A stretch of DNA of 18,394 nucleotides from Fidelibacterota bacterium. Its GTDB lineage: Bacteria; Fidelibacterota; Marinisomatia; Marinisomatales; UBA2128. This document shows positions 1,263 through 18,374 of this stretch, piece by piece (positions within the stretch are counted from its first letter, which is position 1; each line of letters begins with the position of its first letter). The notes below the pieces were generated by a model. It worked only from the letters and a program-made list of their open reading frames with translations. It ran no database searches and had not been told where the DNA came from. Where the stretch lies: positions 1 to 18,394 of the forward strand of contig JBHHUM010000040.1 of the NCBI GenBank assembly GCA_046861645.1. The letters run 5' to 3'. The position numbers were made by a program, and so were the translations under genes.

Positions 1263-3164
1263 ATGTACTCACAAAAATGGCCAGTTCTTTTAGTTTCCTT
1301 TACAGGAGTTCTTTTCCCAGTAATCCTATTACTGGGAGGATGTGCATATTTCAACACTTTTTATAATGCTCAAAATTATTTTCAGAGTGCTGAAAAGGAA
1401 ATGGCGAAAAACTCTTTCGACGAAAGGCTTAATAAGAAGGCTGAGGAAGCGTTAGACATGACTATTGTTAACTGTAATATCATTTTAGAAGAATATCCAG
1501 AATCGAAACTTAGAGACGATGCCTTGTATCTTTCCGCTAAAGCATTCTATTACCTGGGAGATTTCTCCATAGCAAAAAAACGACTTTTTAGGTTGCAGAA
1601 AGAGCATCCGGAAAGTCCTTATCTGGAAGAATCTTCCCTCTGGTTATCCAAGTGTAGATGGAAATTAGGCGAAACAGATGCTGCTCTCGAGGATCTCTTA
1701 TCTCTTTCAGAAAAGTTATCTAAAAAGGGAGGGACACGTGAGCAACTAGCACAGGTTTATGTAACTTTAGGTGAAATTTACATTGAGCTGGGAAAAAAAG
1801 CGGATGCCGTAAAAGAATTCCAAAAGGCTACCAGATTAACCCGTAATGCATCTATTAAAGGTCAATATTTATTGAGGAGTGGTGAACTATTAGTACAAAT
1901 TAATCAGCTTGATAATGCTTTACGGATTTACAGGCAAGTTCTGAAAGTTACTACAAATCCAGAGCGACTTAATAAAGCCAATCTCGAAATTGTCAGAATT
2001 CTCCGTATCCTCGAGCGGTGGGATGAAACTATTAAAACTATTCAAGTACTCCTTTCTAACGAGAAGTTCACAGCCCTCAAATCTGATCTCAACCTGGAGT
2101 TAGCCAGATTGTATGAGATGCGTGGTATGACCCAGGAAGCCATCAGCAGATATACTTCTATAACAGAAGATTTCCAGAAAACTGAGGCATCTGCTCAAGC
2201 CTATTATCAGTTAGGTGAATTGGCTCTGTCTGAGGGAGATGAGTTTGAAGCTGCCAAACGGTATTATAGCAATGTTGAAAGGGAGAAAAGGTCATCCCTA
2301 TTGGTACCGGTGGCACGTGCTCGAGTAAAAGAGATTGAGGCTTACTTAACCGTTATCAATAATATTTCTGTTTTAGAAGCGGTTCTAACATCTGCCCGGT
2401 TAGAAGAAACTAATATTGAGAAAGATATCCCTGAAGATACATTGCATTATGAAACAGATAGCTTAATGATACCCTCAGGAGAGAGAACCGCAATTACTGA
2501 TACTATGGAAACTATTAAGGAATTGACAGAGAACTTATATTCTTTAGGAGAGTTGCTTGCATTTCATTTCAGCAGAGAAGATAGTGCCATAAAAGTACTG
2601 GATAATCTTGTGAACTATTATCCCAACAGTAATACGATACCTCAAGCTCTTTTTACGCTGGGACACTTATTGAGAGAACGAGGAGATACCCTTGAAGCTG
2701 AAAACTATATTACCCAACTTATTGAGAACTATCCTGCAACTGAATTTGCGATCAAAGCAGCCGCTGAAATAGATATCATATTAATTAACGAAGCGGAAGA
2801 ATTGTTGAAGAAAGCAGAAACTGTACTATATGATGATCCTGAAAAGGCAGTTGAAACTTATAAGAGAATACTGCAGGAGTTTCCTGAGTCATCATATGTT
2901 CCCCATGCTTTACTCGCCATTGGTTTTACTTATGAAAATGTGAGGCACAATTTAGATAGTACACTCAACTATTATAGTCTGCTTATTGATAATTTCCCCA
3001 CCAGTGAACAAGCTGAGTCCATCCAGTCTCATTACGAACAGCTTAGGTCAGCTGTGAATCAACTACAGGCTGATACAACTGCAACTCAAGCAATAGAGGA
3101 CACGACCCTATCTCCCGACGTAATACCTGAACCATCCGATAAGGCTCGGGATGAGTCTGATTGA
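1263..3164 (+). CDS. Tetratricopeptide-repeat lipoprotein (BamD/YfiO-like repeats)
   Basis: Lipobox LGGC after a hydrophobic stretch, then CAYFNTFYNA, and many TPR repeats with 'YPES/FPES/YPNS' turns. Confidence 0.8.
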   Translation: MYSQKWPVLLVSFTGVLFPVILLLGGCAYFNTFYNAQNYFQSAEKEMAKNSFDERLNKKAEEALDMTIVNCNIILEEYPESKLRDDALYLSAKAFYYLGDFSIAKKRLFRLQKEHPESPYLEESSLWLSKCRWKLGETDAALEDLLSLSEKLSKKGGTREQLAQVYVTLGEIYIELGKKADAVKEFQKATRLTRNASIKGQYLLRSGELLVQINQLDNALRIYRQVLKVTTNPERLNKANLEIVRILRILERWDETIKTIQVLLSNEKFTALKSDLNLELARLYEMRGMTQEAISRYTSITEDFQKTEASAQAYYQLGELALSEGDEFEAAKRYYSNVEREKRSSLLVPVARARVKEIEAYLTVINNISVLEAVLTSARLEETNIEKDIPEDTLHYETDSLMIPSGERTAITDTMETIKELTENLYSLGELLAFHFSREDSAIKVLDNLVNYYPNSNTIPQALFTLGHLLRERGDTLEAENYITQLIENYPATEFAIKAAAEIDIILINEAEELLKKAETVLYDDPEKAVETYKRILQEFPESSYVPHALLAIGFTYENVRHNLDSTLNYYSLLIDNFPTSEQAESIQSHYEQLRSAVNQLQADTTATQAIEDTTLSPDVIPEPSDKARDESD

Positions 3165-4920: not shown

Positions 4921-5523
4921 ATGCCTTACAGGAAAACGAATTTCGAAAAAGGATATTACTATCACCTCTATAACAGAGGAGCTAACCGAGAGAATATCTT
5001 TCGTGAACGTGACAATTATCACTTCCTTCTTGAAAAAATAGAATTATTTAGTGAGAGAGATAAAATAGCTGTAATCGCCTACTGCTTAATGCCCAACCAT
5101 TACCATTTTCTTGTTCGTCAGGATGACAGCATTTCTATATCTGTGTTTATGCATTCTGTTTTTGGCAGCTATACGAAAGCTTTCAACAAGATGTACCAAC
5201 GTACCGGTACACTCTTCGAAGACCGTTTCAAAAGTATCCTAATTGATTCGGAAGAGTATTTGACACACTTATGCAGATATATTCATCGTAATCCTATTGA
5301 CGGCAAGAAACCACTGGTGGATGACATCAGCCAATGGTCTTTTTCCAACTGGCTTGAATGGATTGGCGTAAAAAATGGAAATCTTGTTGACATAGACTTT
5401 ATTCAAGAGCATTTCACATCGGTTGAAGCCTATAAAGAATTTGTATTCGAGTATGAACCTGATGAAAAAGTAGTGAAAAAAATGGAGAAGTATTTATTTG
5501 GAACAAAGTACCCGGCACTTTAG
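4921..5523 (+). CDS. rayT: REP-associated tyrosine transposase (RAYT / TnpA-REP, IS200-like Y1 HUH family)
   Basis: YYHLYNRG strand, YCLMPNHYHFL (HUH motif), GTLFEDRFKS, and YIHRNP (catalytic Tyr followed by the RAYT-type NP). No tnpB adjacent. Confidence 0.88.
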   Translation: MPYRKTNFEKGYYYHLYNRGANRENIFRERDNYHFLLEKIELFSERDKIAVIAYCLMPNHYHFLVRQDDSISISVFMHSVFGSYTKAFNKMYQRTGTLFEDRFKSILIDSEEYLTHLCRYIHRNPIDGKKPLVDDISQWSFSNWLEWIGVKNGNLVDIDFIQEHFTSVEAYKEFVFEYEPDEKVVKKMEKYLFGTKYPAL

Positions 5524-6014: not shown

Positions 6015-6047
6015 AAGTACCCGACACTTCCATAGTGCAGGGGAATT
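6015..6047. repeat. Degenerate REP-like palindrome copy 3
   Basis: AAGTACCCGACACTT-CCA-TAGTGCAGGGGAATT: left arm 14/15 to the copy 2 left arm, right arm 11/15 to AAGTGCCGGGTACTT, same 3-nt spacer. Lies between rlpA and cdsA. Confidence 0.7.
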
Positions 6048-6070
6048 CTTTATATTCAACCTCAATTCAC

Positions 6071-6913
6071 ATGACAGATACACTATCATCCCGAATGTTT
6101 GTGAATTTTCTCGGTGTTCCGGGGATCCTTATACTGGTGTATCTGGGTGGACCCTGGTTTTTGGGTTTTGTTACAGTAGTTGCCCTGATGGCTCTTTATG
6201 AATTTTATCGTCTGGTAGGACATAAAGGTGTTTCCCCACATGTGGGTTTAGGCCTGCTTACCGGGACAATAATAATGTTGTTTTATTATGGCAATCTCTA
6301 TCCCAAACTGGCTACTGCAAATTGGCAGCACCTCCTGATAGTATTTATTCTTATAGTAGGACTTTTAGAACTTTTTCGAGGGAAGGAGCACCCCACAGCC
6401 AATATCACCTATACGCTGGCAGGGATATTATATGTGCCCCTGTTGATCGGGACTATGGTCACACTTCGCAATATAGAATCCAATAAAGTTGATCTCGGTT
6501 TTCACCTAACCCTGGTTCTTTTTGTCTGTGTTTGGACTTGTGACTCCGCTGCTTATCTCTTTGGAAAAAAATGGGGTGAGGTAAAGATATTAATAAAGGT
6601 GAGCCCTAAAAAAACATGGGTAGGAGGGATCGCAGGATTGATCTCAGCCGTTACTGTCGCAGCTGTCTTTTTTTTGACTGACTTCTTTCCCTTAAAATCT
6701 ATAACACTTACTGACTCCATAATCATAGGAGCTATTGTAGGAATATTTGGTCAAGCCGGAGATTTCATAGAATCTTTAATGAAACGTGATGCTGGAGTAA
6801 AAGACTCGGGTTCTTTCCTTTTAGGGCATGGTGGTGTTCTCGATAGATTCGATTCCTTGATTGTGGCTACACCTCTGATCTTCCTCTATTATATTTATAT
6901 GATCGCGGGGTGA
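6071..6913 (+). CDS. cdsA: Phosphatidate cytidylyltransferase
   Basis: Polytopic membrane protein with DSAAYLFG, VSPKKTWVG and GDFIESLMKRDAGVKDSGSFLLGHGGVLDRFDS signature. Start moved from GTG 6035 (inside repeat copy 3) to ATG 6071. Confidence 0.93.
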   Translation: MTDTLSSRMFVNFLGVPGILILVYLGGPWFLGFVTVVALMALYEFYRLVGHKGVSPHVGLGLLTGTIIMLFYYGNLYPKLATANWQHLLIVFILIVGLLELFRGKEHPTANITYTLAGILYVPLLIGTMVTLRNIESNKVDLGFHLTLVLFVCVWTCDSAAYLFGKKWGEVKILIKVSPKKTWVGGIAGLISAVTVAAVFFLTDFFPLKSITLTDSIIIGAIVGIFGQAGDFIESLMKRDAGVKDSGSFLLGHGGVLDRFDSLIVATPLIFLYYIYMIAG

Positions 6914-6938: not shown

Positions 6939-7406
6939 GTGGAAAACTTATCTCCGGGGTTACACCAGAATAGCTCGCAATTAGAGCAAATTACAGCAGG
7001 TGAATCATTTCATTGGCGGGCTCACCCTGCCCGCGAGAGAGTAAAGATAGCCATGCTTGGAGGATTTATTATCTTATCTTTAGGGATCATTATTTTTACC
7101 TCATTCCAAAGTATTCTGCTGACTCTTTTTTCAATATTCGTCTTGGTACTTCAACTTAACCGTTTCTATTTTCCCAGCAGTTTTTCCATAAATAGCCAGG
7201 GTATTTCAGCTAAATATCTTCTACGATCTCAACGAATGAATTGGAGTAAAATAAAGCGAATTGAGCAGGATAATTATGGTGCTTATCTTTCTAAACGAGA
7301 AATCCCCTCCCGATGGGATGCTTTCAGGGGAATGCAAATCCTATTCGGAAATGAGCGCGAAAAAGTTAAATCTTTATTGAAAATGGGATGGAAGTCTGCC
7401 TCATGA
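6939..7406 (+). CDS. Hypothetical membrane protein: two TM helices plus bacterial PH-like (YcxB-type) C-terminal domain
   Basis: Two adjacent hydrophobic helices, then 'FSINSQGI...RMNWSKIKRIE', a pattern typical of bacterial PH-like domains. Its stop overlaps the next start (ATGA at 7403-7406). Confidence 0.6.
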   Translation: MENLSPGLHQNSSQLEQITAGESFHWRAHPARERVKIAMLGGFIILSLGIIIFTSFQSILLTLFSIFVLVLQLNRFYFPSSFSINSQGISAKYLLRSQRMNWSKIKRIEQDNYGAYLSKREIPSRWDAFRGMQILFGNEREKVKSLLKMGWKSAS

Positions 7407-7780
7407 GCTGGCTGAAACACGCCTTTGCTGTTGATCCTCCCGGAGCTGCAGAGCCAACAGCAGCACAGGCTAAAGCTGTAGAGAAAGTTTGCCAAGAAGT
7501 AGTCAGACGCCGTTTGACCACTCCAGCTTTAATCATGTTAGAGACATTTCGTCCACTCAATTATGTAGGATCACAACTCCTTCATTTTTTCCACCCTATC
7601 ATCTCGGCTATTCTGTCTACTGATGCTTATCGCAACTTTACAGAATTTTTAGAACGACGTGGAAGTGTTGATTATCTCTGTTACAGGATTGAACAACTTG
7701 ATAAAGAAAGACCTAAAGTTAGACGGAACAGTGACACTAAAGTTGCTGTACAATCTCCTCCTGATTCTAAAGATGACTAA
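7403..7780 (+). CDS. Hypothetical protein (125 aa, helical), member of the GlmL-like operon
   Basis: ATGA overlap with the upstream stop fixes the start at 7403 (MSWLKHAFAVDPPG...); overlaps the next gene start by 8 bp. Confidence 0.7.
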   Translation: MSWLKHAFAVDPPGAAEPTAAQAKAVEKVCQEVVRRRLTTPALIMLETFRPLNYVGSQLLHFFHPIISAILSTDAYRNFTEFLERRGSVDYLCYRIEQLDKERPKVRRNSDTKVAVQSPPDSKDD

Positions 7781-9587
7781 AGTAAATACGGAAAAAATAA
7801 ACATTATTCTCGCTACAGATTGTGGTAGTACCACTACCAAAGCTATTCTCATTCAAAAAGTGGAGGGTGAGTATCGGCAGACCCATCGTGGCGAGGCGCC
7901 AACTACGGTTGAAGAACCGTTTGCGGATGTTACGGTGGGTGTTATCAATTCTGTGACTGAAGTGGCCGAGCTGTCAGGTAGGCGTCTGGTAGACGATGAG
8001 GGAAGGATCATTCAACCCGCCACAGATTCTGAAGGGTGTGATATTTATATCTCCACCTCCAGCGCTGGTGGAGGACTGCAAATGATGGTGGCTGGAGTTA
8101 TCAAGGAGATGACGGCAGCCAGTGCGAAACGTGCTGCCCTGGGTGCTGGAGCAATCGTTATGGATACCATTGCATCTAATGACGGTCGAAAAGCTCACCA
8201 GCGCATTCAACGTATTCGCGAGCTGCGTCCGGATATGATGCTCATCTCTGGTGGAACGGATGGGGGTGATACCAAACATGTTGTGGAAATAGCTGAACTG
8301 GTATCACCTGCTAAACCGAAGCCACGCTTTGGCAAGGAATATCAATTGCCCATTGTTTATGCAGGGAATAATCAAGCAGTCGAAAAGATGGAGAACATTT
8401 TCGATAATGGCTTTGAACTCAAAGTCGTGGATAATCTCCGTCCAGTCTTAGAGAGAGAAAATTTAGGTCCTGCTCGAGATGCCATTCATGATTTATTCCT
8501 GGAGCATGTCATGGCTCATGCACCAGGTTACAATAAACTTATCCAGTGGACGGATGCTCCAATCATGCCCACACCGGGAGCGGTTGGGAATATCCTGCAA
8601 ACTATTGCTACCCGGGAAAAGATTAATGTCGTGGGCGTTGATATTGGCGGTGCTACTACGGATGTTTTCAGTGTATTTAACGGCACCTTCAACCGTACTG
8701 TCAGCGCTAACCTTGGAATGAGTTATTCAATATCTAATGTCTGCTCCGAAGCATCCATGCCCAATATCTTGCGCTGGGTGCATATTGATATGGATGAGCG
8801 GGAACTACGCAACCGTGTAAAGAACAAAATGATACGTCCCACTACCATTCCCCAGACTCTGGAAGCTCTGATATTTGAACATGCAGTCGCCCGGGAAGCT
8901 CTCCGCTTGGCCTATCAGCAACATAAGGAATTTGCCACCACGCTTAAGGGAGTTCAACAGCAGCGAACTGTTGGAGATACCTTCAGTCAGGTGATTAGTG
9001 GACAATCTATCGTAGATAACATGAAATTGAACCTACTGGTAGCCTCTGGAGGGGTATTATCCCACGCTCCCCGCATGCATCAAACGGCTATGTTATTAAT
9101 CGATTCTTTTCAGCCAGAAGGGGTAACAGCATTAGCTAAAGACAGTATTTTCATGATGCCCCACTTGGGTGTTCTGGCACAAGTACATCCTCAGGCTGCA
9201 ACGGAAGTTTTTGAACGGGACTGCCTCATCTACCTCGGTTCTGTTGTGGCTCCCGCTGGTAAATGTAAAGAAGGAAAACCATGCTTCTCCTATAAAATTC
9301 AAGGGTCAACTCTTAATGAGACTGGGGAAATACTTTTCGGGAAAATAAAACTTCTTCCCTTAGGACCAGGGGAAACCGCTACCATTACTATCGAACCGAC
9401 GAAAATATTTGATACTGGTGCAGGCCCAGGGAGAAAAGTTGAAGCAGAAGTAAAAGGTGGTACGGTTGGTCTTTTCTTGGATGGACGCGGTCGTCCTTTC
9501 GATATCCCTAAAGATCACAACCAAAGCAGAAAAATGATGGAAAACTGGATTACAGCGGTTGATCTTTATCATAACAGAGAGGTTTAG
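7773..9587 (+). CDS. GlmL/MutL (glutamate mutase L-like, not DNA-repair MutL) ASKHA actin-fold ATPase with C-terminal extension
   Basis: ILATDCGSTTTK (phosphate 1), SSAGGGLQM, AALGAGA, ISGGTDGG, YAGN, IMPTPGAV, VDIGGATTDVFS (phosphate 2), RTVSANLGM and SGGVLSH (adenosine) motifs match GlmL/OraF-type proteins. Start set at ATG 7773, just before the phosphate-1 strand (604 aa). Confidence 0.85.
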   Translation: MTKVNTEKINIILATDCGSTTTKAILIQKVEGEYRQTHRGEAPTTVEEPFADVTVGVINSVTEVAELSGRRLVDDEGRIIQPATDSEGCDIYISTSSAGGGLQMMVAGVIKEMTAASAKRAALGAGAIVMDTIASNDGRKAHQRIQRIRELRPDMMLISGGTDGGDTKHVVEIAELVSPAKPKPRFGKEYQLPIVYAGNNQAVEKMENIFDNGFELKVVDNLRPVLERENLGPARDAIHDLFLEHVMAHAPGYNKLIQWTDAPIMPTPGAVGNILQTIATREKINVVGVDIGGATTDVFSVFNGTFNRTVSANLGMSYSISNVCSEASMPNILRWVHIDMDERELRNRVKNKMIRPTTIPQTLEALIFEHAVAREALRLAYQQHKEFATTLKGVQQQRTVGDTFSQVISGQSIVDNMKLNLLVASGGVLSHAPRMHQTAMLLIDSFQPEGVTALAKDSIFMMPHLGVLAQVHPQAATEVFERDCLIYLGSVVAPAGKCKEGKPCFSYKIQGSTLNETGEILFGKIKLLPLGPGETATITIEPTKIFDTGAGPGRKVEAEVKGGTVGLFLDGRGRPFDIPKDHNQSRKMMENWITAVDLYHNREV

Positions 9588-9589
9588 GG

Positions 9590-10723
9590 TTGGCACACGC
9601 TTATACACCCGGATTGAAAATTAGTCACCGTGAGATAATTCAGAGGAATAGAACACTTCCTATCAAAGGTAAAGTTTTGGTTTCAGAAGGGGATAGAGTG
9701 GAAGCTCAACAGATCGTAGCGGAGACATTCATGCCGGGGGATATCATTCCCATTAACATTGCCAATAATCTTTCCATGCCACCGGCTGATGTACCTGAAT
9801 GCATGCTCGTCAAGAAAGGTGACCAGGTGTCAGTGGGAGATCCAATTGCCCGTACCAAAGGTATTTTTGGTCTTTTCAAAACTGAGTATAAAAGTAAATA
9901 CGAAGGAACAGTTGAAACCATATCTGATGTCACAGGTCAGATAATTTTACGCGGGGAACCACAACCAGTAAGAGTACTGGCCTTCATACCGGGAAAGATT
10001 GTTAAGGTTTTACCAGAAGAAGGTGTAGTAATCGAAGCTGAAGTAAGTTACATTCAGGGTATATTCGGAATCGGAGGAGAAACATTTGGTACCATCAGAA
10101 TAGCCTGCGATTCTCATTCTGAAGCACTCACAAAAGAAAAAATTTCAGCAGATATGCAAGACCAGGTTATAGTCGGAGGGAGTAGAGTAACTGCCCATGC
10201 CATTTCTAGAGCGGTGGAAGTGGGAGCAGCTGGTGTGGTTTCTGGAGGAATTGATGACGCCGACTTGAAAGAGTTTCTTGGGTATGATCTTGGCGTAGCA
10301 ATCACCGGTACAGAAAAAAAAGGTATTACGCTTATCATTACTGAAGGATTTGGTGATATAGCCATGGCTCAACGCACTTTTGAGCTCCTGAAATCACGTG
10401 AAGGGGCTAACGCATCTATCAACGGAGCTACACAGATAAGAGCGGGGGTTATCCGGCCGGTCATTGCTATTCCTGTGGATAGCACCGTATCACATGAGCC
10501 TACTGCCGTTAGTCAAAGGGAAGGAATTCTTGAAGTTGGTTGTTCTGTACGGATCATTCGTGATCCTTATTTTGGTATGTTAGGCAGGGTAAAAAATCTT
10601 CCTTATGAACCCCAGAAATTAGGATCCGGCTCAAAAGCCAGAGTTTTAGAAGTTGAGCTGTCCTCTGGAGATATTGTTACTGTTCCCCGGGCCAATGTTG
10701 AATTGATTGAGGGGGACGATTGA
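9590..10723 (+). CDS. Hypothetical soluble protein: barrel-sandwich-hybrid repeats, alpha/beta core, C-terminal KOW/SH3-like domain
   Basis: GKVLVSEGDRVEAQQIVA and LVKKGDQVSVGDPIA...SKYEGTVETI resemble biotinyl/lipoyl-like hybrid domains; VGCSVRIIRDPYFGMLGRV is KOW-like. TTG start with GAGAGGT RBS, 2 bp after the upstream stop. Confidence 0.75.
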   Translation: MAHAYTPGLKISHREIIQRNRTLPIKGKVLVSEGDRVEAQQIVAETFMPGDIIPINIANNLSMPPADVPECMLVKKGDQVSVGDPIARTKGIFGLFKTEYKSKYEGTVETISDVTGQIILRGEPQPVRVLAFIPGKIVKVLPEEGVVIEAEVSYIQGIFGIGGETFGTIRIACDSHSEALTKEKISADMQDQVIVGGSRVTAHAISRAVEVGAAGVVSGGIDDADLKEFLGYDLGVAITGTEKKGITLIITEGFGDIAMAQRTFELLKSREGANASINGATQIRAGVIRPVIAIPVDSTVSHEPTAVSQREGILEVGCSVRIIRDPYFGMLGRVKNLPYEPQKLGSGSKARVLEVELSSGDIVTVPRANVELIEGDD

Positions 10724-12102
10724 TGCGACATTGGGCTTCCCAGATAGCTTTTTTCTTCACCCTGACAACTGTTGTTCTTACTCAAGATTTTGATGGTAAA
10801 CTGAAGGTTATGGTTGAGGATCACAGTTGGGATGGTGGTGATAAAATGGATTTATCATGGATATTAACAGATGATAAAGTCGGGAAAGTGGTTTCTTATA
10901 AAATTTATCGTTCCAATACAGATGAAGAGATCGAAGCAATCATCAATGAAGAAAAATCTAAAGCAATCAAATCTGCAAAAGAGGAGGTTACGGAGCAACT
11001 TTTTACTTTAGCCGAGAAGAATGGTGTTCCCAAGGATGATAAAGGATTATTAAGGAAGATACGGGAGGAGAGAAAAAAAGCATCCGAAAAGGCTACACAA
11101 AATTTTATTGAACAGGAAGCTGATCTACGCGAGCAATCCAAATTCAGGTTCCTCACCGTTGGTATTAAGGGCCAGACTGCTCTGACAGTTGAGAAACTTG
11201 ATGATAACACTGAGTACTTTTTCAAGGTTGCAGCCTTAGATGAACATGGTCATGTACTGCTAGCGGATACGACTGATCGCTCCTTAAGTCCTGTCAAACA
11301 AAATTTTGATGGATCACGATTCTATCTTAGTATTATCACGTTTATACTTTGTTTCTCGGTTGTATCTTTCATACAGATAGCTAGAAAAGGCACTTCTTTA
11401 AAAGTTCGCAAAATAGCTGGTTTGGAGGCAGTTGACGAAGCAGTAGGAAGAGCCACTGAAATGGGGCGTTCTATTCTCTTCATACCCGGTATTCAAGATA
11501 TGAACGAAATTCAAACAATCGCCGGGTTAACGGTACTTTCTCGTGTCGCTGAGACGGCAGCTAATTATGATGCTAAACTGGAAGTACCCACCAGCCGTTC
11601 ACTGGTAATGACTACGGCTCGGGAGACCGTTCAGGCGTCCTTCCTCGCTGCTGGTCGACCTGAATCCTATAACCAGGATTTGATTTACTATGTTACCGAT
11701 GAGCAGTTTGGGTATGTAGCTTATCTTTCCGGAATGATGGTAAGAGAGAAACCGGCAGCCTGCTTTTATATGGGGGCATTTTTCGCTGAATCATTGATTC
11801 TGGCTGAGACGGGTAATTCTATAGGAGCCATACAGGTAGCGGGTACAGCCATGCCCGCCCAATTACCCTTCTTTGTGGCTGCATGTGATTATACTCTCAT
11901 CGGAGAAGAGTTCTTTGCAGCGTCTGCTTATCTTTCCGGTGAACCAGATCAGTTGGGAAGTTTGAAAGGTCAGGATGTGGGTAAGGTTATTGTTGCTGCT
12001 GGTATGTTTATTGGGATCACATTGGCAACAATTGGAGCCATTACTCAATCTGAAGCTATCATGAAAGCCCTCGATTTCATCAAGAGTACAGTGCTGGGTT
12101 AA
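10723..12102 (+). CDS. Membrane protein: signal peptide, fibronectin type III domain, TM, DUF6754-like alpha/beta domain, TM
   Basis: Fn3 motifs DLSW, YKIYRS and LDDNTEYFFKVAA; after the TM, RKIAGLEAVDEAVGRATEMGR ... QVAGTA ... QLPFFVAACDYTLIGEEFFAASAYL, recognised as DUF6754-like. TGATG coupling to the upstream stop gives ATG 10723. Confidence 0.75.
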   Translation: MRHWASQIAFFFTLTTVVLTQDFDGKLKVMVEDHSWDGGDKMDLSWILTDDKVGKVVSYKIYRSNTDEEIEAIINEEKSKAIKSAKEEVTEQLFTLAEKNGVPKDDKGLLRKIREERKKASEKATQNFIEQEADLREQSKFRFLTVGIKGQTALTVEKLDDNTEYFFKVAALDEHGHVLLADTTDRSLSPVKQNFDGSRFYLSIITFILCFSVVSFIQIARKGTSLKVRKIAGLEAVDEAVGRATEMGRSILFIPGIQDMNEIQTIAGLTVLSRVAETAANYDAKLEVPTSRSLVMTTARETVQASFLAAGRPESYNQDLIYYVTDEQFGYVAYLSGMMVREKPAACFYMGAFFAESLILAETGNSIGAIQVAGTAMPAQLPFFVAACDYTLIGEEFFAASAYLSGEPDQLGSLKGQDVGKVIVAAGMFIGITLATIGAITQSEAIMKALDFIKSTVLG

Positions 12103-12116
12103 GGAGTAAGGCTTAA

Positions 12117-12815
12117 ATGAAACGAACAATTCCCCTGATGATTACAGCCCTGGGAGGTTTCGTCCTCATCATAGCCTATTTTATACCCGCCACACAAGGG
12201 TGGGGAGAGACCGTTTCCATCTGGTTTGATGTACTGGCCTCTATTGCTTTCATCCTCGGAGGCGGAAACCTGTTGAAAATCCATCTGAAAAAAGTATCTG
12301 ACAAGCAGGCTGGTTGGGGCTTCTCATTGGTCACTGTAATATCATTCATTATTATGCTTTTCGTTGGTCTTTCCAAGATGGGTGTTCATCCCAGCACTAA
12401 TTTCCCCAACTTCGCCTGGTCGGGAAGCTATCGTGAGCTGGGTAGTCCCTTCTGGTGGTTGTATGAATATGCTTTTAAGCCGTTAACCGCTACCATGTTT
12501 GCTATGTTAGCATTTTATGTAGCCTCAGCGGCGTTTAGAGCTTTTCGAGCCAAGAATATCGAGGCTATCCTTTTATTGGGGACAGCATTTATCATCCTTT
12601 TAGGTCGTACCTTTGCAGGAGTATATTTGACCAGCTGGCTACCTGATTCTCTGAGCGGCTTGAGAATTGAGAACTTGACGGTTATCATTATGCAAGTATT
12701 TAATACTGCTGGTAACCGGGCAATTATGATTGGTATTGCTCTTGGAATCGCATCCACTTCATTAAAGGTTTTACTAGGTGTAGATCGATCTTACCTGGGA
12801 GGTGGAGAGGATTGA
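12117..12815 (+). CDS. Uncharacterised polytopic membrane protein (about 6 TM)
   Basis: About six hydrophobic segments; AAGGAG RBS at 12101-12106; motif ATMFAMLAFYVASAAFRAFR. Confidence 0.8.
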   Translation: MKRTIPLMITALGGFVLIIAYFIPATQGWGETVSIWFDVLASIAFILGGGNLLKIHLKKVSDKQAGWGFSLVTVISFIIMLFVGLSKMGVHPSTNFPNFAWSGSYRELGSPFWWLYEYAFKPLTATMFAMLAFYVASAAFRAFRAKNIEAILLLGTAFIILLGRTFAGVYLTSWLPDSLSGLRIENLTVIIMQVFNTAGNRAIMIGIALGIASTSLKVLLGVDRSYLGGGED

Positions 12816-12817
12816 TC

Positions 12818-13699
12818 ATGTTTGAAAAATTAAAGAACATTGATCGCCGCTGGATTTTTCTGATGATGTTATTATCAGTTTCAATTCCTATAATCGTCAT
12901 CGGTTTGACAGGTCAATCTTTCCCTGAAACCCCTACTCAGCTAGCTTATTCAACTTTCAACGCTATTGAAGATTTGAATCCGGGTGATAAAGTTTTACTG
13001 TCTTTCGATTTTGATCCCGCTAGCGAAGGTGAGTTAGGACCCATGGCTACAGCATTTACTTACCATTGTGCTGCCAAAGGACTCAAAATGTACTTCATGG
13101 CTCTATGGCCCGTGGGTCCACAAATGATCGATAACGCTATTGAAAAAGTTATTAAAAAAGATTTTCCCAATTTGGTTTACGGTAAAGATTATGTCAATCT
13201 TGGTTATAAATCAGGTAATGAAGGAGTGATTAAGGTTATAATAACTGATTTCAGGGAATTATACACCACCGATTCCCGAGGGAGTACATTCGATGATATT
13301 CCCATGTGTCAGGAAGTTTCCAGTGTTCGTGATATGGACTTGATCATTAACATCAGCGCTGGTTATGCTGGTACCAAGGAGTGGGTACAGTACGCAGTAA
13401 CACCTTATCCTGAAGAAGTCACCCTTGTAGCTGGATGTACTGGTGTCCAGGCACCATTATTGTATCCTTATATACCTGACCAGCTACCGGGGCTTCTTGG
13501 AGCCATTAAAGGAGCAGCAGAATACGAAAAACTGGTCTTTGATAGATATTATCGTGAGAAAGGCCTTGAAGTACCCGGGATGTATCAGGAAGGTGTCCGT
13601 CGCATGGGTCCACAGTTGGTTGCTCACCTTTTGATGATACTCTTAATTATTGCAGGGAATGTCATTTTCTTTATCGAAAGGAAAAGAGGTACATTGTAA
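12818..13699 (+). CDS. Uncharacterised membrane protein: TM, extracytoplasmic alpha/beta domain, TM
   Basis: GGAGAGG RBS before ATG 12818. Basic N-terminus (KLKNIDRR) and C-terminus (ERKR) flank two TMs enclosing a ~230-aa soluble domain. Confidence 0.8.
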   Translation: MFEKLKNIDRRWIFLMMLLSVSIPIIVIGLTGQSFPETPTQLAYSTFNAIEDLNPGDKVLLSFDFDPASEGELGPMATAFTYHCAAKGLKMYFMALWPVGPQMIDNAIEKVIKKDFPNLVYGKDYVNLGYKSGNEGVIKVIITDFRELYTTDSRGSTFDDIPMCQEVSSVRDMDLIINISAGYAGTKEWVQYAVTPYPEEVTLVAGCTGVQAPLLYPYIPDQLPGLLGAIKGAAEYEKLVFDRYYREKGLEVPGMYQEGVRRMGPQLVAHLLMILLIIAGNVIFFIERKRGTL

Positions 13700-14688
13700 T
13701 GGATCGCCAAAAAATGATATGGAGTATTGTTTTTGCTTTTGGTGTCCTGGCTCTTATTGGAAATGCCGCCTTTCGAGATGCTGGCTCTGTTTACGTAAAG
13801 AAAATTGACCATGAATTCGCTCAAGTGGAAGCCGAGAAATGGGTAAATGTTAAAAGCGATGAGGCTCTGGATTATGATCTGGAAGGGAAAGAGCGTATTA
13901 AATGGTCATCGGAAGAATTGGCAAGTTATAGAGACTACCTGAAAGCTATCCGTAATAATGCGGATCAAAGGGAATATTCATTTAGTTCTTCTAGAACCTT
14001 TGGTGTTTGGGTTGCTGCTCTTTTTACACTGTTTATTATGTCGTTTCTTTTCAAGGATAATCCCTTTTATAAATTTGCTGAGTCAGTCGTTGTGGGAGTT
14101 TCTGCCGCTTATTGGATGGTAGTCGGCTTCTGGGAAGTGATCGTGCCCAATTTAATTGGAAAGCTATGGCCCACTATAGTAAAAAATTGGGCGATGCCTG
14201 GGTTGGATGCCACCGCAGAATTGACCTATTTGGTACCCTTGATTTTAGGTATTATGCTACTCTGGAGATTGGCACCTAAAGGAACCTGGATTAGTCGTTG
14301 GCCTTTGGCTTTTATCATTGGTACCACAGCGGGGATACGTCTTATAGGTTTCATACATGCCGATTTCCTCAGCCAGATTAGGAATAGCATCATCCCACTG
14401 GTAGTCATGGAAAATGGTTCTTTCATGTTTTGGGATTCTTTCCTCAATTTGATCCTTGTTATCGGTGTGTTAACTGCAATTGTCTATTTCTTCTTCTCCA
14501 TAGAACATAAGGGAATAGTAGGCAAGACTGCCAACGTTGGTATCTGGTTTCTGATGATAACCTTTGGCGCTGCCTTTGGATATACAGTTATGGGTCGTAT
14601 TGCTCTCTTGGCTATCCGCTTGGAATTTCTCTTTGATGATTGGCTCTGGATCATCGATCCTACCATGAATCGTATCACTGGCATGTGA
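13699..14688 (+). CDS. Uncharacterised polytopic membrane protein (about 7-8 TM)
   Basis: TAATG coupling to the upstream stop; N-terminal TM, charged loop, then a multi-TM core with KDNPFYKFAESVVVGVSAAY and FLMITFGAAFGYTVMGR. Confidence 0.8.
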   Translation: MDRQKMIWSIVFAFGVLALIGNAAFRDAGSVYVKKIDHEFAQVEAEKWVNVKSDEALDYDLEGKERIKWSSEELASYRDYLKAIRNNADQREYSFSSSRTFGVWVAALFTLFIMSFLFKDNPFYKFAESVVVGVSAAYWMVVGFWEVIVPNLIGKLWPTIVKNWAMPGLDATAELTYLVPLILGIMLLWRLAPKGTWISRWPLAFIIGTTAGIRLIGFIHADFLSQIRNSIIPLVVMENGSFMFWDSFLNLILVIGVLTAIVYFFFSIEHKGIVGKTANVGIWFLMITFGAAFGYTVMGRIALLAIRLEFLFDDWLWIIDPTMNRITGM

Positions 14689-14716: not shown

Positions 14717-15673
14717 CTGGCCCTTCTCGAAGTAAATTCGCTTAGTCTTTCCCTACAAAGAAATAGAGATGTTATTCCCATCGTGGATGATCTCTCTTTG
14801 TTAATATCCACTAGTGATTCTGTAGCGCTGGTAGGAGAATCAGGTTGTGGAAAAAGTCTAACCGCACTAGCCATCCTTCACCTCCTTGATGGCACAGGAA
14901 TTAAGGTTACAGGAAATGTTTTATGGAGGGGTAAAGAGGTTTATCAATTATCTTCTAAAGAATTACACCAATACCGCGGGGGGGAGGTGGCTATTATATT
15001 TCAGGAACCCATGACTGCTCTCAATCCTGTCATTCGTTGTGGTAAGCAAATTAAGGAAGTTCTGAAAATTCATAATTATGGTAATGACGATAATACTGGA
15101 AGAGTTATGGATCTTCTGCAGCGAGTTCGGTTGCCAGATCCTGCTGAAGTTTACAAAAGCTATCCTCACGAACTGAGCGGTGGAATGCGCCAGAGAGTGT
15201 TGATTGCTATGGCCATCGCTGGTAATCCTAAACTTCTCATCGCCGATGAGCCAACTACCGCTCTGGACGTTACGGTTCAGAGCCAGATCATTGATCTTCT
15301 TTTCGATCTTCAGAAGGATAACGATATGAGTGTCCTCTTTATTACTCACGATCTTTCTATTGTCGATGCTATTGCCGAAAGATTAGTAATTATGTACGCT
15401 GGCCAGATAGTTGAGGAGGGAAAGGCTCAGAGTGTTTTGAATAATCCTCTACACCCTTATACCAGGGCCCTATTAAAGTGCGCACCCAGCCTGGAGGAAA
15501 AGAAGCGTAAATTGAGCACTATCCCTGGCTCCGTTCCTCAACCGGGTGAATATCCGTCTGGCTGCAGGTTTCATCCCCGGTGTGATATTACATATGAAGA
15601 GTGCATAAAATTAGAACCTACTCTTGATAGAATAACTGATCGAGATGTGCGTTGTCCTTACGCTATTAAGTAG
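14717..15673 (+). CDS. oppD: Oligopeptide/dipeptide ABC transporter ATP-binding protein (OppD/DppD family)
   Basis: Walker A GESGCGKS, Q-loop IFQEPMTALNP, signature YPHELSGGMRQR, Walker B LLIADEPTTALD, H-loop ITHDL and C-terminal HPYT...GCRFHPRC domain. The frame is open upstream of GTG 14783 to CTG 14717, restoring the typical (M)ALLEVNSL N-terminus. Confidence 0.88.
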   Translation: MALLEVNSLSLSLQRNRDVIPIVDDLSLLISTSDSVALVGESGCGKSLTALAILHLLDGTGIKVTGNVLWRGKEVYQLSSKELHQYRGGEVAIIFQEPMTALNPVIRCGKQIKEVLKIHNYGNDDNTGRVMDLLQRVRLPDPAEVYKSYPHELSGGMRQRVLIAMAIAGNPKLLIADEPTTALDVTVQSQIIDLLFDLQKDNDMSVLFITHDLSIVDAIAERLVIMYAGQIVEEGKAQSVLNNPLHPYTRALLKCAPSLEEKKRKLSTIPGSVPQPGEYPSGCRFHPRCDITYEECIKLEPTLDRITDRDVRCPYAIK

Positions 15674-15785: not shown

Positions 15786-15811
15786 GTCGGCAGTTATAAA
15801 CTATTGCCGAC
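15786..15811. promoter_or_regulatory. Inverted repeat, probable AbiEi autoregulatory operator
   Basis: GTCGGCA-N12-TGCCGAC perfect 7-bp IR directly downstream of the -10, extending imperfectly outwards (ATAAT/ATTAT; AAATGTA/TACATTT). AbiEi antitoxins are known to repress their own promoter via inverted repeats. Confidence 0.6.
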
Positions 15812-15830
15812 ATTATCTTACATTTCTAAA

Positions 15831-16433
15831 ATGAAGAATTCGCGTTCACAAAAAATCATAGACCTTGTGAGTGAGAAGGGCATTATCAGGCCTCGAGACC
15901 TGAAGCAGCTCGGAATCCCTGAAACTTATCTATATCGCCTTGTTGGTAGCGGGGATATTGTCCGAATAGCTCGTGGGCTCTATACGACACCTGGTTTCAC
16001 CTTTTCAGAACATGAGAGTCTAGCGGAGGTCTGTAAACGTGTTCCTCACGGTGTAATATGTCTCCTTTCCGCTCTAAACTTCCACAATCTCACGACACAG
16101 CTGCCCTTTCAAGTATGGATGGCTATTCATCATAAAACACGCTCCCCGAAGATCGACATCGTACCTGTTCGAATCATCAGAATGTCCGGAGCCTCCCTCG
16201 ATGAGGGTATTGAAGTGCATAAGGTAGATAAAGTACCTGTAAACGTATTCGGTCCTGCAAAAACTGTAGTAGACTGTTTCAAATACCGTAATAAGGTCGG
16301 GCTGGACGTGGCTTTGGAAGCTCTTCGGGATTGTTGGCAAAAACGTCAGTGCACCATGGATGAACTGTGGCGTTTCGCGAAGATTTGCCGTGTCACAGAG
16401 GTGATCAGGCCCTATCTTGAATCTCTCGTATGA
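15831..16433 (+). CDS. abiEi: Type IV toxin-antitoxin antitoxin, AbiEi family transcriptional regulator
   Basis: N-terminal wHTH (LYRLVGSGDIVRIARGLY), GVICLLSALNFHNLTTQLP and AKTVVDCFKYRNKVGLDVALEAL. Start moved to ATG 15831 because TTG 15804 lies inside the operator IR. Confidence 0.9.
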   Translation: MKNSRSQKIIDLVSEKGIIRPRDLKQLGIPETYLYRLVGSGDIVRIARGLYTTPGFTFSEHESLAEVCKRVPHGVICLLSALNFHNLTTQLPFQVWMAIHHKTRSPKIDIVPVRIIRMSGASLDEGIEVHKVDKVPVNVFGPAKTVVDCFKYRNKVGLDVALEALRDCWQKRQCTMDELWRFAKICRVTEVIRPYLESLV

Positions 16434-17347
16434 ATCAGGGACAACCCAAAAACATTTCCCACTCTGTCCGTCAGAGATTGAAAAACCTTTCAGAAGAAAT
16501 GGAGGAGGAATTCCAGAGAGTTCTTATTCGTTACGCCATAGAAAGACTGCTCTACCGTCTTACTCAATCGGATTATATTGGTGATTTTGTGCTCAAGGGT
16601 GCCATGCTGTTTTGCTACTGGAATCAGAAACTCCATCGTGCGACCAAAGACCTCGATTTGCTTGGAACTGGAGAGAGTTCAGTAGATCAGCTGGAAGAGA
16701 TATTTCGAACTATCTGCGGTGTGGTCGTTGTTGATGATGGTCTGAGGTTTAACAAAGACAAAGTCAGAGGGGTGGAAATCCGTGAAGATCAAGAATATGA
16801 GGGTGTAAGAATTCTCATGGGAGCTGCACTCGATTCTGCTCGGATTCCTTTGCAGATTGATATCGGCTTTGGTGATGTCATCGTTCCTTCGCCACAGCTT
16901 GTAGAATATCCAACCATTTTGGAATTTCCTTCTCCTCACTTGAAGGCTTATCCTCGGGAAACGACCATTGCGGAGAAGTATCAGACTATCGTACGGTTCG
17001 GTATTGCATCCAGTCGTGTAAAAGATTTCTATGACATTTGGTTTCTTGCGCAGAAGTTCACTTTTGATGGGCAGAAACTGTCGGGAGCGATTGGCGCCAC
17101 ATTCAAAAGGAGGAGGACGACGATTCCTCTTGAGATACCTGTTGCCCTTTCGGCTGATTTCTTTAACAATAAGAACAAACAGGCACAATGGAGAGCGTTT
17201 ATTGAAAAAGGGAGGTTGGAGATTAGTGTACCAGATCTAAGAAAGGTTTCTTCTTTCTTGGAGCAATTTTTGATTCCTCCGGCTCTGGCAGCTGCGACTC
17301 GTGAGAATTTTACATTCACTTGGAGCCCACCAGGACCGTGGCAATGA
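16430..17347 (+). CDS. abiEii: Type IV toxin-antitoxin toxin, AbiEii/AbiGii nucleotidyltransferase
   Basis: FVLKGAML, RATKDLDL, IAEK and SRVKDFYDI motifs; ATGA overlap with abiEi. Confidence 0.9.
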   Translation: MNQGQPKNISHSVRQRLKNLSEEMEEEFQRVLIRYAIERLLYRLTQSDYIGDFVLKGAMLFCYWNQKLHRATKDLDLLGTGESSVDQLEEIFRTICGVVVVDDGLRFNKDKVRGVEIREDQEYEGVRILMGAALDSARIPLQIDIGFGDVIVPSPQLVEYPTILEFPSPHLKAYPRETTIAEKYQTIVRFGIASSRVKDFYDIWFLAQKFTFDGQKLSGAIGATFKRRRTTIPLEIPVALSADFFNNKNKQAQWRAFIEKGRLEISVPDLRKVSSFLEQFLIPPALAAATRENFTFTWSPPGPWQ

Positions 17348-17579: not shown

Positions 17580-18011
17580 ATGACATCTAATTCAAGTTGC
17601 AAGTTTTCAATATCGAAGAATCGAATGTACTCAGAGCAAACAAGAGATACGATTCATTCTATTTGCAGGGAGCATGGATTTGATGAGATGGACGCAAATC
17701 GTATGGAAATGGCAATTAGAGAAACTTGCCAAAATGCAATTAAGTATGGAATTCATCCTGAAGAAGAATCGAATTATTATCTTGAATTACACATCAACGA
17801 AACAGAGATAAAAGCTATTGTGATTAGTAAAGGAGATGCTATTGATTTTGATAATATTAAGCCGTTTGATATACACCATGATTTCTTAACATATAAAGAT
17901 GGGGGTTTGGGAATACCGCTGGTTAAGGCGCTCATGGATGACGTGCATTATGAGCGGAAGGCAAATAGCACCAACAAAATAACTTTAATAAAGTATATTA
18001 AATCAAGATAA
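17580..18011 (+). CDS. rsbW: RsbW-like anti-sigma factor / Ser kinase (HATPase_c)
   Basis: N-box EMAIRETCQNAIKYG and G2-box DGGLGIPLVKALMDDVHY; adjacent to a STAS protein. Confidence 0.75.
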   Translation: MTSNSSCKFSISKNRMYSEQTRDTIHSICREHGFDEMDANRMEMAIRETCQNAIKYGIHPEEESNYYLELHINETEIKAIVISKGDAIDFDNIKPFDIHHDFLTYKDGGLGIPLVKALMDDVHYERKANSTNKITLIKYIKSR

Positions 18012-18029
18012 AAAGGAGAGAAGTAACAA

Positions 18030-18374
18030 ATGAAAATCAAAGAAAAAGTTAATGGGGATGTCACTGTATTGACCCTGTCTGGGAAGATGATGAATGGTCC
18101 TGAAAGCATCAATTTACATCCCTATGTTAAAGGACTCATTGAAAAGGATCAGACGAAAATTGTAGTTGATATGGGGAAGGTAAAGTGGTTTAGCAGTACG
18201 GGACTGGGATCGTTACTTGCCTCGTATACATCATTACGAAATGCGGAGGGTGATTTGAGGATTGCCCGTCCCACTCAGAAGATCTACAGTGTCTTTATGT
18301 CAACTCAACTGACTAAAGTGTTTGACAGCTTTGATACCGTCGAGGAAGCAGTTGAAAGCTATACGACAAAGTAA
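18030..18374 (+). CDS. rsbV: STAS-domain anti-sigma factor antagonist (RsbV/SpoIIAA-like)
   Basis: VTVLTLSG, IVVDMGKVKWFSSTGLGSL (phospho-Ser region) and FDTVEEAVES; AAGGAG RBS upstream. Confidence 0.8.
   Translation: MKIKEKVNGDVTVLTLSGKMMNGPESINLHPYVKGLIEKDQTKIVVDMGKVKWFSSTGLGSLLASYTSLRNAEGDLRIARPTQKIYSVFMSTQLTKVFDSFDTVEEAVESYTTK

Follow-up and report, generated by a model that had tools for sequence, protein, structure and literature searches.

What does a bacterial operon do that joins an ATPase of the actin fold to a set of membrane proteins? The question is raised by eight genes, here called g1 to g8, that lie on the + strand within positions 6939-14688 of contig JBHHUM010000040.1 from a Fidelibacterota bacterium; the window that we analyzed is this whole stretch of 18,394 nucleotides (nt). 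A first-pass annotation had described them as a row of co-oriented, overlapping or nearly abutting genes coding for a candidate ATP-driven membrane machine. We found the system to be widespread, strongly conserved and, by the searches made, apparently undescribed. Our preferred interpretation, with a probability of about 0.45, is that the eight genes encode one two-module machine of the cytoplasmic membrane driven by the actin-fold ATPase, whose cargo we do not name.

The co-occurrence of the genes across genomes, for which the first-pass annotation had proposed a check, was investigated by scanning species-representative genomes with g5. Of the 143 relatives found, the best 80 loci were used; they come from Neomarinimicrobiota, Planctomycetota, Gemmatimonadota, Acidobacteriota and Verrucomicrobia metagenome-assembled genomes. 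Using tblastn with the proteins of the window, we detected g5 in all 80 loci, g6 in 76, g4 in 73, g7 in 70, g8 in 68, g3 in 60, g2 in 52 and g1 in 23. The gene set proved conserved, as g2-g8 were complete, in the order of the window and on one strand, in 48 of the 80 loci, and in 26 of the remaining 32, the contig ends on the side where genes are missing. Because gene order and strand are repeated in those 48 loci of other genomes, the arrangement is far beyond chance. The flanks of the gene set differ across phyla. A metagenome scan yielded more than 613 additional relatives, and the DUF6754 domain that defines g5 was present in 40/151 genomes of an even sample of Planctomycetota. A separate observation concerns one contig of a genome of the window's phylum (L037/L120), in which about 7 kb of other DNA lie between g5 and g6.

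In the window, the junctions read from the open reading frame (ORF) list are those that had been claimed. g1 to g4 are joined by an ATGA overlap at 7403, an 8-bp overlap at 7773 and a 2-bp gap at 9588-9589. From g4 to g8, the connections are TGATG at 10723, 14 bp between g5 and g6, 2 bp between g6 and the ATG of g7 at 12818, and TAATG at 13699. Scans of the window for promoters (21 versus 20.8 in shuffled sequence) and terminators (9 versus 9.1) were at shuffle level and hence uninformative on transcription. The domains previously named were supported by Pfam and NCBIfam matches and by hydropathy, which gave no transmembrane (TM) segment in g2, g3 and g4, one in g1, two in g5, approximately six in g6, two in g7 and seven in g8.

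The ATPase is encoded by g3 (7773..9587, 604 amino acids [aa]). It matched Pfam MutL/GlmL (PF13941) with an E value of 2e-127, covering all profile positions from 1 to 450, and has about 120 additional aa at its C terminus. Across 42 sequences, the mean column identity was 74%, and the stretches A14-I25 (setting apart L13, which is nearly invariant), V289-D297 and S425-P433 were invariant; we take them to be the phosphate-1, phosphate-2 and adenosine motifs. The 41 aligned relatives were 68 to 88% identical to the copy of the window. A secondary Pfam match to Hydantoinase_A (PF01968; E = 1.7e-6) was confined to 41 residues, 273-313, and a profile search found no sequence relative of g3 in the PDB. 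Judged by its sequence, g3 is an actin/Hsp70-fold (ASKHA) ATPase of the MutL/GlmL family with intact ATP motifs.

Directly downstream, g4 (9590..10723, 377 aa) encodes a soluble protein whose conserved central domain lies between a barrel-sandwich hybrid domain and a KOW-like end; the mean column identity is 70%. Its Pfam matches, to an RnfC_N/NQRA_N/Biotin_lipoyl-type barrel and the KOW-like end, were subthreshold, and no catalytic family was matched in Pfam, the PDB profile search or the Atlas. In 9/80 loci, g3 and g4 form a single ORF of 989-1011 aa; several genomes of the phylum sample likewise carry them within a single open frame of about 1000 aa. A further fusion is represented in the Atlas by a cluster of 876-aa MutL proteins, which aligns with the full length of g4. 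These fusions support a physical link, and g4 reads as the soluble partner of g3.

The family name of g3 points to another function, since GlmL/MutL is encoded with the glutamate mutase genes glmS/glmE. We therefore counted the families in 201 genomes that sample the window's phylum evenly, taking PF13941 over its cut-off. DUF6754 was present in 128 genomes and PF13941 in 131, with near-identical tallies by family (12/13 for both in f3, 15/20 for both in f6, and 0/6 for both in f19 and f20). In family f26, DUF6754 was found in 0/30 genomes and PF13941 gave five weak matches, of which the three listed were all under the cut-off. Genomes of only 0.8 to 1.1 Mb retain both. By contrast, glutamate mutase E (Met_asp_mut_E) was detected in 1/201 genomes, and that one lacks both PF13941 and DUF6754. 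The window's own genome, which is 94% complete, has one PF13941 gene, one DUF6754 gene and no match to Met_asp_mut_E; Lys-AminoMut_A (lysine/ornithine aminomutase) was not matched there either, a weak negative because that search was silent in control genomes as well. The pairing of the ATPase with membrane genes instead of B12 mutases, as inferred in the first-pass annotation, thus holds in the phylum, and the ATPase does not track with glmES.

The g3 protein also scored well below the more specific NCBIfam models, with 231.2 bits against GlmL (NF040745; equivalog cut-off 475), 209.7 bits against Or-4, the GlmL-related ornithine degradation protein (NF040744; cut-off 600), and 168.5 bits against the GlmL subfamily TIGR01319 (cut-off 204).

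Of the membrane proteins, g5 (10720/10723..12102) has the clearest family assignment, DUF6754 (PF20539), with an E value of 6.6e-121 and 402.7 bits against a cut-off of 27. It consists of a signal-like N terminus, a periplasmic FN3 domain, a TM segment at 198-222, the DUF6754 domain at 235-406 and a C-terminal TM segment. In the AlphaFold model (predicted local distance difference test score, 81), the FN3 domain carries an inserted helical hairpin at 68-139 (72 aa), and region 235-406 is modeled as a five-stranded alpha/beta domain between two TM helices, the invariant acidic and polar residues of which sit in stretches after the predicted strands. g6 (12117..12815, 232 aa) has a mean column identity of 66% and an invariant motif, S137-A145 (SAAFRAFRA), followed by N147 and E149. 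g7 (12812/12818..13699, with 12818 the likely start) has a TM segment at each end and an alpha/beta domain of about 230 aa between them (Atlas model; predicted template modeling score, 0.87). In g8 (13699..14688, 329 aa), an N-terminal TM segment and a small beta domain at 32-95 precede six further TM helices. The positive-inside rule would place the DUF6754 domain in the cytoplasm, and the FN3 domain, the g7 domain and the g8 beta domain in the periplasm. The two small proteins complete the set: g1 (6939..7406) has a hydrophobic segment at 35-53 and a weakly PH-like C-terminal part (bPH_6, a subthreshold match to a bacterial PH domain), and g2 (7403 or 7388..7780, 125 aa) has neither a Pfam or NCBIfam match nor a strong TM segment.

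The genes fall into two modules, an ATPase module of g3 and g4 and a membrane module of g1, g2 and g5-g8. The first-pass annotation had treated six proteins as one core; the set is indeed conserved, but it is better divided in this way. In genus g48, the operon is split, with cdsA-g3-g4 at one site and g1-g2-g5-g6-g7-g8 at another. In the closed genome G022 (L230/L231), which retains all of these genes, a distance of 1.07 Mb separates the two parts, and the same split was found in G135 (L232/L233) and G051 (L234/L235). As the split loci keep everything, both modules are preserved when unlinked, and g1 and g2 were assigned to the membrane module because both stay with g5-g8. Conversely, the g5-g6-g7-g8 unit is present two or three times in tandem beside a single g3-g4 pair in some genomes of Planctomycetota and in numerous loci from metagenomes (e.g., L159, L176, L184, L201, L205, and L214). 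The tandem copies are 30 to 59% identical, which makes them old paralogues. By analogy, these repeats form the pattern expected of an energizing module shared by paralogous membrane units.

Most genomes of the window's phylum have a second variant of the operon, in the order g3-g4-g2-g5-g6-g7-g8; its g3 shares about 59% identity with that of the window. A FastTree phylogeny of 106 g3 sequences comprised two deep clades, with the window's variant within a clade dominated by Planctomycetota and most copies of the phylum in the other. Both variants occupy the same chromosomal place, after cdsA. The same site together with different g3 clades suggests that the window's operon is a transferred copy that may have replaced the resident one.

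Sequence comparisons point to nearly invariant cytoplasmic and membrane-embedded parts and to putative periplasmic parts that differ greatly between lineages. The N-terminal part of g5 is missing in the second variant, giving proteins of about 290 aa. It reaches about 650 aa in L243 and L244, where an FN3-like start as in the window is followed by a stretch rich in Ala, Glu, Leu and Lys that may be a long helical insert. In L240 (858-4796), L241 (1042-4872) and L242 (295-4113, - strand), the g5 homologues reach about 1300 aa, and NGFE..W and FDD motifs mark the repeats that make up their N-terminal part of about 1000 aa. None of the long extensions had a Pfam match even at E <= 5; the repeats may resemble CBM4_9-type carbohydrate-binding modules, a likeness that Pfam does not support. 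g6 varies as well, with an in-frame insert of about 290 to 450 aa in the loop after the third TM segment in seven Planctomycetota loci (L027, L047, L053, L055, L056, L067, and L078); the insert contains repeated GPL(S/T)xxQ motifs, and its junctions are unlike those of inteins.

Altogether, g3/g4 and the five membrane proteins probably form a new kind of membrane machine. What we infer for its working concerns assembly beyond g3-g4, ATP hydrolysis, transport, its direction and the cargo. The cytoplasmic energy module, composed of the g3 ASKHA ATPase and its hybrid-barrel/KOW partner g4, would bind and hydrolyze ATP at the cytoplasmic face. It might dock on the strongly conserved cytoplasmic surfaces of the membrane module, namely, the DUF6754 domain and the S137-A145 motif of g6. 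A conformational cycle of the membrane module, made of g5, g6, g7 and g8 with the small proteins g1 and g2, could then move a substrate across the membrane or extract it from there, presumably toward the lineage-variable periplasmic parts. A complex prediction for g4 with residues 190-460 of g5 scored 0.00, which gives no answer either way.

We tentatively extend this proposal, with less confidence than in the two-module machine itself, to a new class of primary membrane machines energized by an ASKHA ATPase rather than by an ABC, P-type, AAA+ or rotary motor, in which one g3-g4 motor would serve one to three paralogous four-protein membrane units. The putative periplasmic reach of these units varies with the N-terminal part of g5, which may be absent, be the FN3 domain carrying the 72-aa hairpin, or measure about 650 or about 1000 aa, and such machines may thus convey cargo or the energy of ATP through the full depth of the envelope.

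Several observations weigh against the two-module machine. Six loci (L044, L045, L050, L055, L062, and L066) have an incomplete set despite ample flank, and several regions of the Planctomycetota sample carry g3-g4-g5 alone or g5-g8 alone. Kinases, chaperones and filament-forming proteins are also found among the ASKHA proteins, so the use of ATP does not by itself imply a pump. No resemblance to known transporters was found, in comparisons by fold for g8 and by sequence only for g6 and g7; as no membrane subunit resembles a known transporter, transport is an analogy. Lastly, the genomic context points to no consistent cargo.

Searches for folds and families gave little to identify the membrane proteins. 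g6, g7 and g8 belong to no Pfam or NCBIfam family, and tallies of Pfam matches over relatives were at noise level (at most 4/62 for g8 and 3/66 for g7). PDB profile searches with g6, g7, g8, g4, g3 and an alignment of the DUF6754 domain alone returned nothing significant. The profile of g5 relatives matched FN3 domains in the PDB, and matches to the whole g5 model in structure searches were likewise taken up by its FN3 domain. The fold comparison for g8 returned no known fold, and in the Atlas, the neighbors of g7 were only unnamed clusters and those of g4 clusters of its own family. One lead connected the DUF6754 domain to the HAD-like P domain of P-type ATPases, with a match to Na,K-ATPase residues 595-692 (E = 0.13) and Foldseek rows for the Nir2 LNS2 domain (E of about 1e-2); it was rejected at the profile level, as hhalign comparisons with 21 aligned P domains from relatives of P-type ATPases gave probabilities of 1.8% and 1.2%. 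A relationship between g7 and g5 was also discarded, since hhalign aligned only a transmembrane helix. None of the eight proteins matched a PADLOC family of known anti-phage defense systems (E <= 0.01).

Among the alternatives, the one that survives best is a special case of the two-module machine, in which it would handle membrane lipids or lipid-linked envelope precursors, i.e., phospholipid, phosphatidic acid or membrane biogenesis. We consider it unlikely. It was prompted by a clustering of the flanks of the 80 loci. In the window, cdsA (6035-6913), the sole copy in the genome, lies 26 nt upstream of g1. Of 20 regions from about 17 families of the window's phylum (L112-L131), 19 have cdsA upstream in the same orientation, and in the split operon this gene remains beside g3-g4. 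Over the 80 loci, lipid genes (cdsA, plsX, fabH/D/F or uppS) are present in the available flank of 26, in three layouts: cdsA upstream (9 loci), plsX-fabH-fabD-fabG-fabF downstream (10 loci) and fabG..uppS-cdsA downstream or nearby (7 loci). An lgt gene, a DedA/VTT gene and a cardiolipin synthase gene were each seen near the system in one metagenome locus, the remaining neighbors being unrelated.

This association weakens elsewhere. Lipid genes were found in 0/20 regions of the even Planctomycetota sample, a test made after the lipid idea had formed, and in only 5/78 metagenome loci, all with Planctomycetota-type layouts already seen (plsX-fab and fabG-uppS-cdsA); the Acidobacteriota loci and most Phycisphaerales loci have none of these genes. 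Moreover, the block TPR-pyrK-pyrD-rlpA-dagK-cdsA, of which the TPR/BamD-like gene lies at 1263-3164 in the window, keeps its synteny throughout the phylum, also where the system is lacking, so that the cdsA adjacency counts as a single event. We looked after cdsA in those genomes for an analogue of the system and rejected the candidates, the gene there being for an aminotransferase, a GlmU-like protein or FapA. In 7/20 regions, oppABC genes separate cdsA from g3; as the system sits inside an opp-type operon in these more distant families, the position of cdsA next to the system in the window may have arisen secondarily. Independently of this, the block of the window contains an IS200-like Y1 transposase gene (4921-5523) between pyrD and rlpA, which is absent at that position in the other mapped genomes of the phylum.

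A second alternative, also quite unlikely, makes g3-g4 a membrane-held enzyme, such as an ASKHA kinase, a ligase or a hydantoinase-like ATP-dependent enzyme, with g5-g8 holding or delivering a membrane-bound or periplasmic substrate. The Hydantoinase_A match of g3, the fact that g3 and g4 are the most conserved parts, and the placement of the invariant residues in the DUF6754 alpha/beta domain are consistent with it. However, no substrate-related gene is consistently near, g4 matches no catalytic family, and repeated paralogous four-gene membrane modules behind one g3-g4 pair are not obviously needed by an enzyme.

It is more doubtful that g3 is a membrane-tethered, actin-like filament or scaffold protein, comparable to MreB with MreC/D or PilM with PilN/O, in a set that organizes the envelope or cell shape. 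An actin fold encoded with bitopic and polytopic membrane partners would suit this role, and so would the periplasmic parts of g5 and g6, which are much longer in Planctomycetota, as if to span a variable periplasm. Nevertheless, the fixed 1:1 partner g4, often fused to g3, better fits an enzyme-like unit, and we know of no polymerization in the GlmL/hydantoinase branch.

Even less probable is an accessory role of the set for a peptide ABC importer of the Opp/Dpp type. The argument for it is the layout cdsA-oppA-oppB-oppC-[g3..g8]-oppD in the 7/20 regions above, where the three genes between cdsA and g3 were confirmed as oppABC by Pfam in L122, L124, L127 and L129 and identified by ORF size only in L123, L126 and L130. 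An OppD/F-type ATPase follows g8 in 11/20 regions, plus one weak match, and in the window, an ATPase of this type (ABC_tran and oligo_HPY) is found at 14783-15673, 3' of g8. Yet this association is confined to one phylum, a single locus elsewhere among the 80 (L071) having an Opp-type ATPase nearby. In the window's genome, the single oppABC set lies on another contig, and there are two OppD/F genes, the second of them on a third contig; this is a normal complement, and the ATPase after g8 is therefore not an orphan. That the cdsA block is kept in genomes without the system also speaks against the importer. We conclude that the context gives lipid, envelope and peptide-import leads but no consistent answer.

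Finally, we give practically no credence to g3 being a coenzyme-B12 mutase accessory or reactivating protein (GlmL/MutL or Or-4), as its database name says, because the PF13941 match and the weak NCBIfam matches that suggest it are outweighed by scores far under the equivalog cut-offs, the near absence of glutamate mutase from the phylum, the extra C-terminal part of g3 and its fixed partner g4.

The rest of the window downstream of the Opp-type gene codes for other functions. An AbiEi antitoxin and an AbiEii nucleotidyltransferase toxin, which make up a type IV toxin-antitoxin pair, are encoded at 15804-17347 by genes that overlap by 4 bp. A histidine-kinase-like ATPase gene (HATPase_c_2) followed by a STAS-domain gene occupies 17580-18374; we take this layout to be that of an RsbW-type anti-sigma factor with its anti-anti-sigma factor.

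No publication was found on DUF6754, PF13941 or the gene set, and broader topics gave none among the matches listed, in agreement with the earlier statement that no functional description of these genes was known. PMC12645912 presents FcmB, a ParM-derived actin that is unrelated to the present system.

If the two-module machine is real, it would have three consequences. An actin-fold ATPase would add a new motor fold to ATP-driven membrane machines, the well-studied ones of which, to our knowledge, all use a handful of motor folds. The naming of these ATPases as B12-mutase helpers would be a systematic misannotation that the system would correct. The set would also offer a defined target of seven to eight genes in abundant, little-studied marine and soil bacteria.

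Each of the known systems that come closest shares some features with the gene set and differs in others. GlmL/MutL (NF040745, PF13941) and Or-4 (NF040744) have the same Pfam family and ASKHA fold as g3, which differs from them by falling under both equivalog cut-offs and that of TIGR01319, by its extra ~120 aa, by its fixed hybrid-barrel partner and by its pairing with DUF6754 membrane genes; the only glutamate mutase among the sampled phylum genomes is in one without PF13941. The ASKHA ATPases of the hydantoinase A/oxoprolinase/acetone-carboxylase type (PF01968) are locally and weakly similar to g3 at the second phosphate-binding region; the similarity covers those 41 residues only, a HyuB-like partner is absent, and the context of g3 consists of membrane genes. 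In MreB-MreC/D, PilM-PilN/O and FtsA, a cytoplasmic actin fold is likewise encoded with membrane proteins, but no sequence relation to them was found, and g3 belongs to the GlmL/hydantoinase branch with a different set of partners. With RnfC and NqrA of the Rnf and Na+-NQR complexes, g4 shares a weak N-terminal barrel-sandwich hybrid and the position of a soluble subunit beside polytopic ones. ABC and energy-coupling factor transporters differ by their ATPase fold from g1-g8, in which Pfam and NCBIfam detected no ABC_tran domain and whose membrane subunits have no known family; in outline, they resemble the system proposed here, with a soluble ATPase unit that serves several paralogous membrane units.

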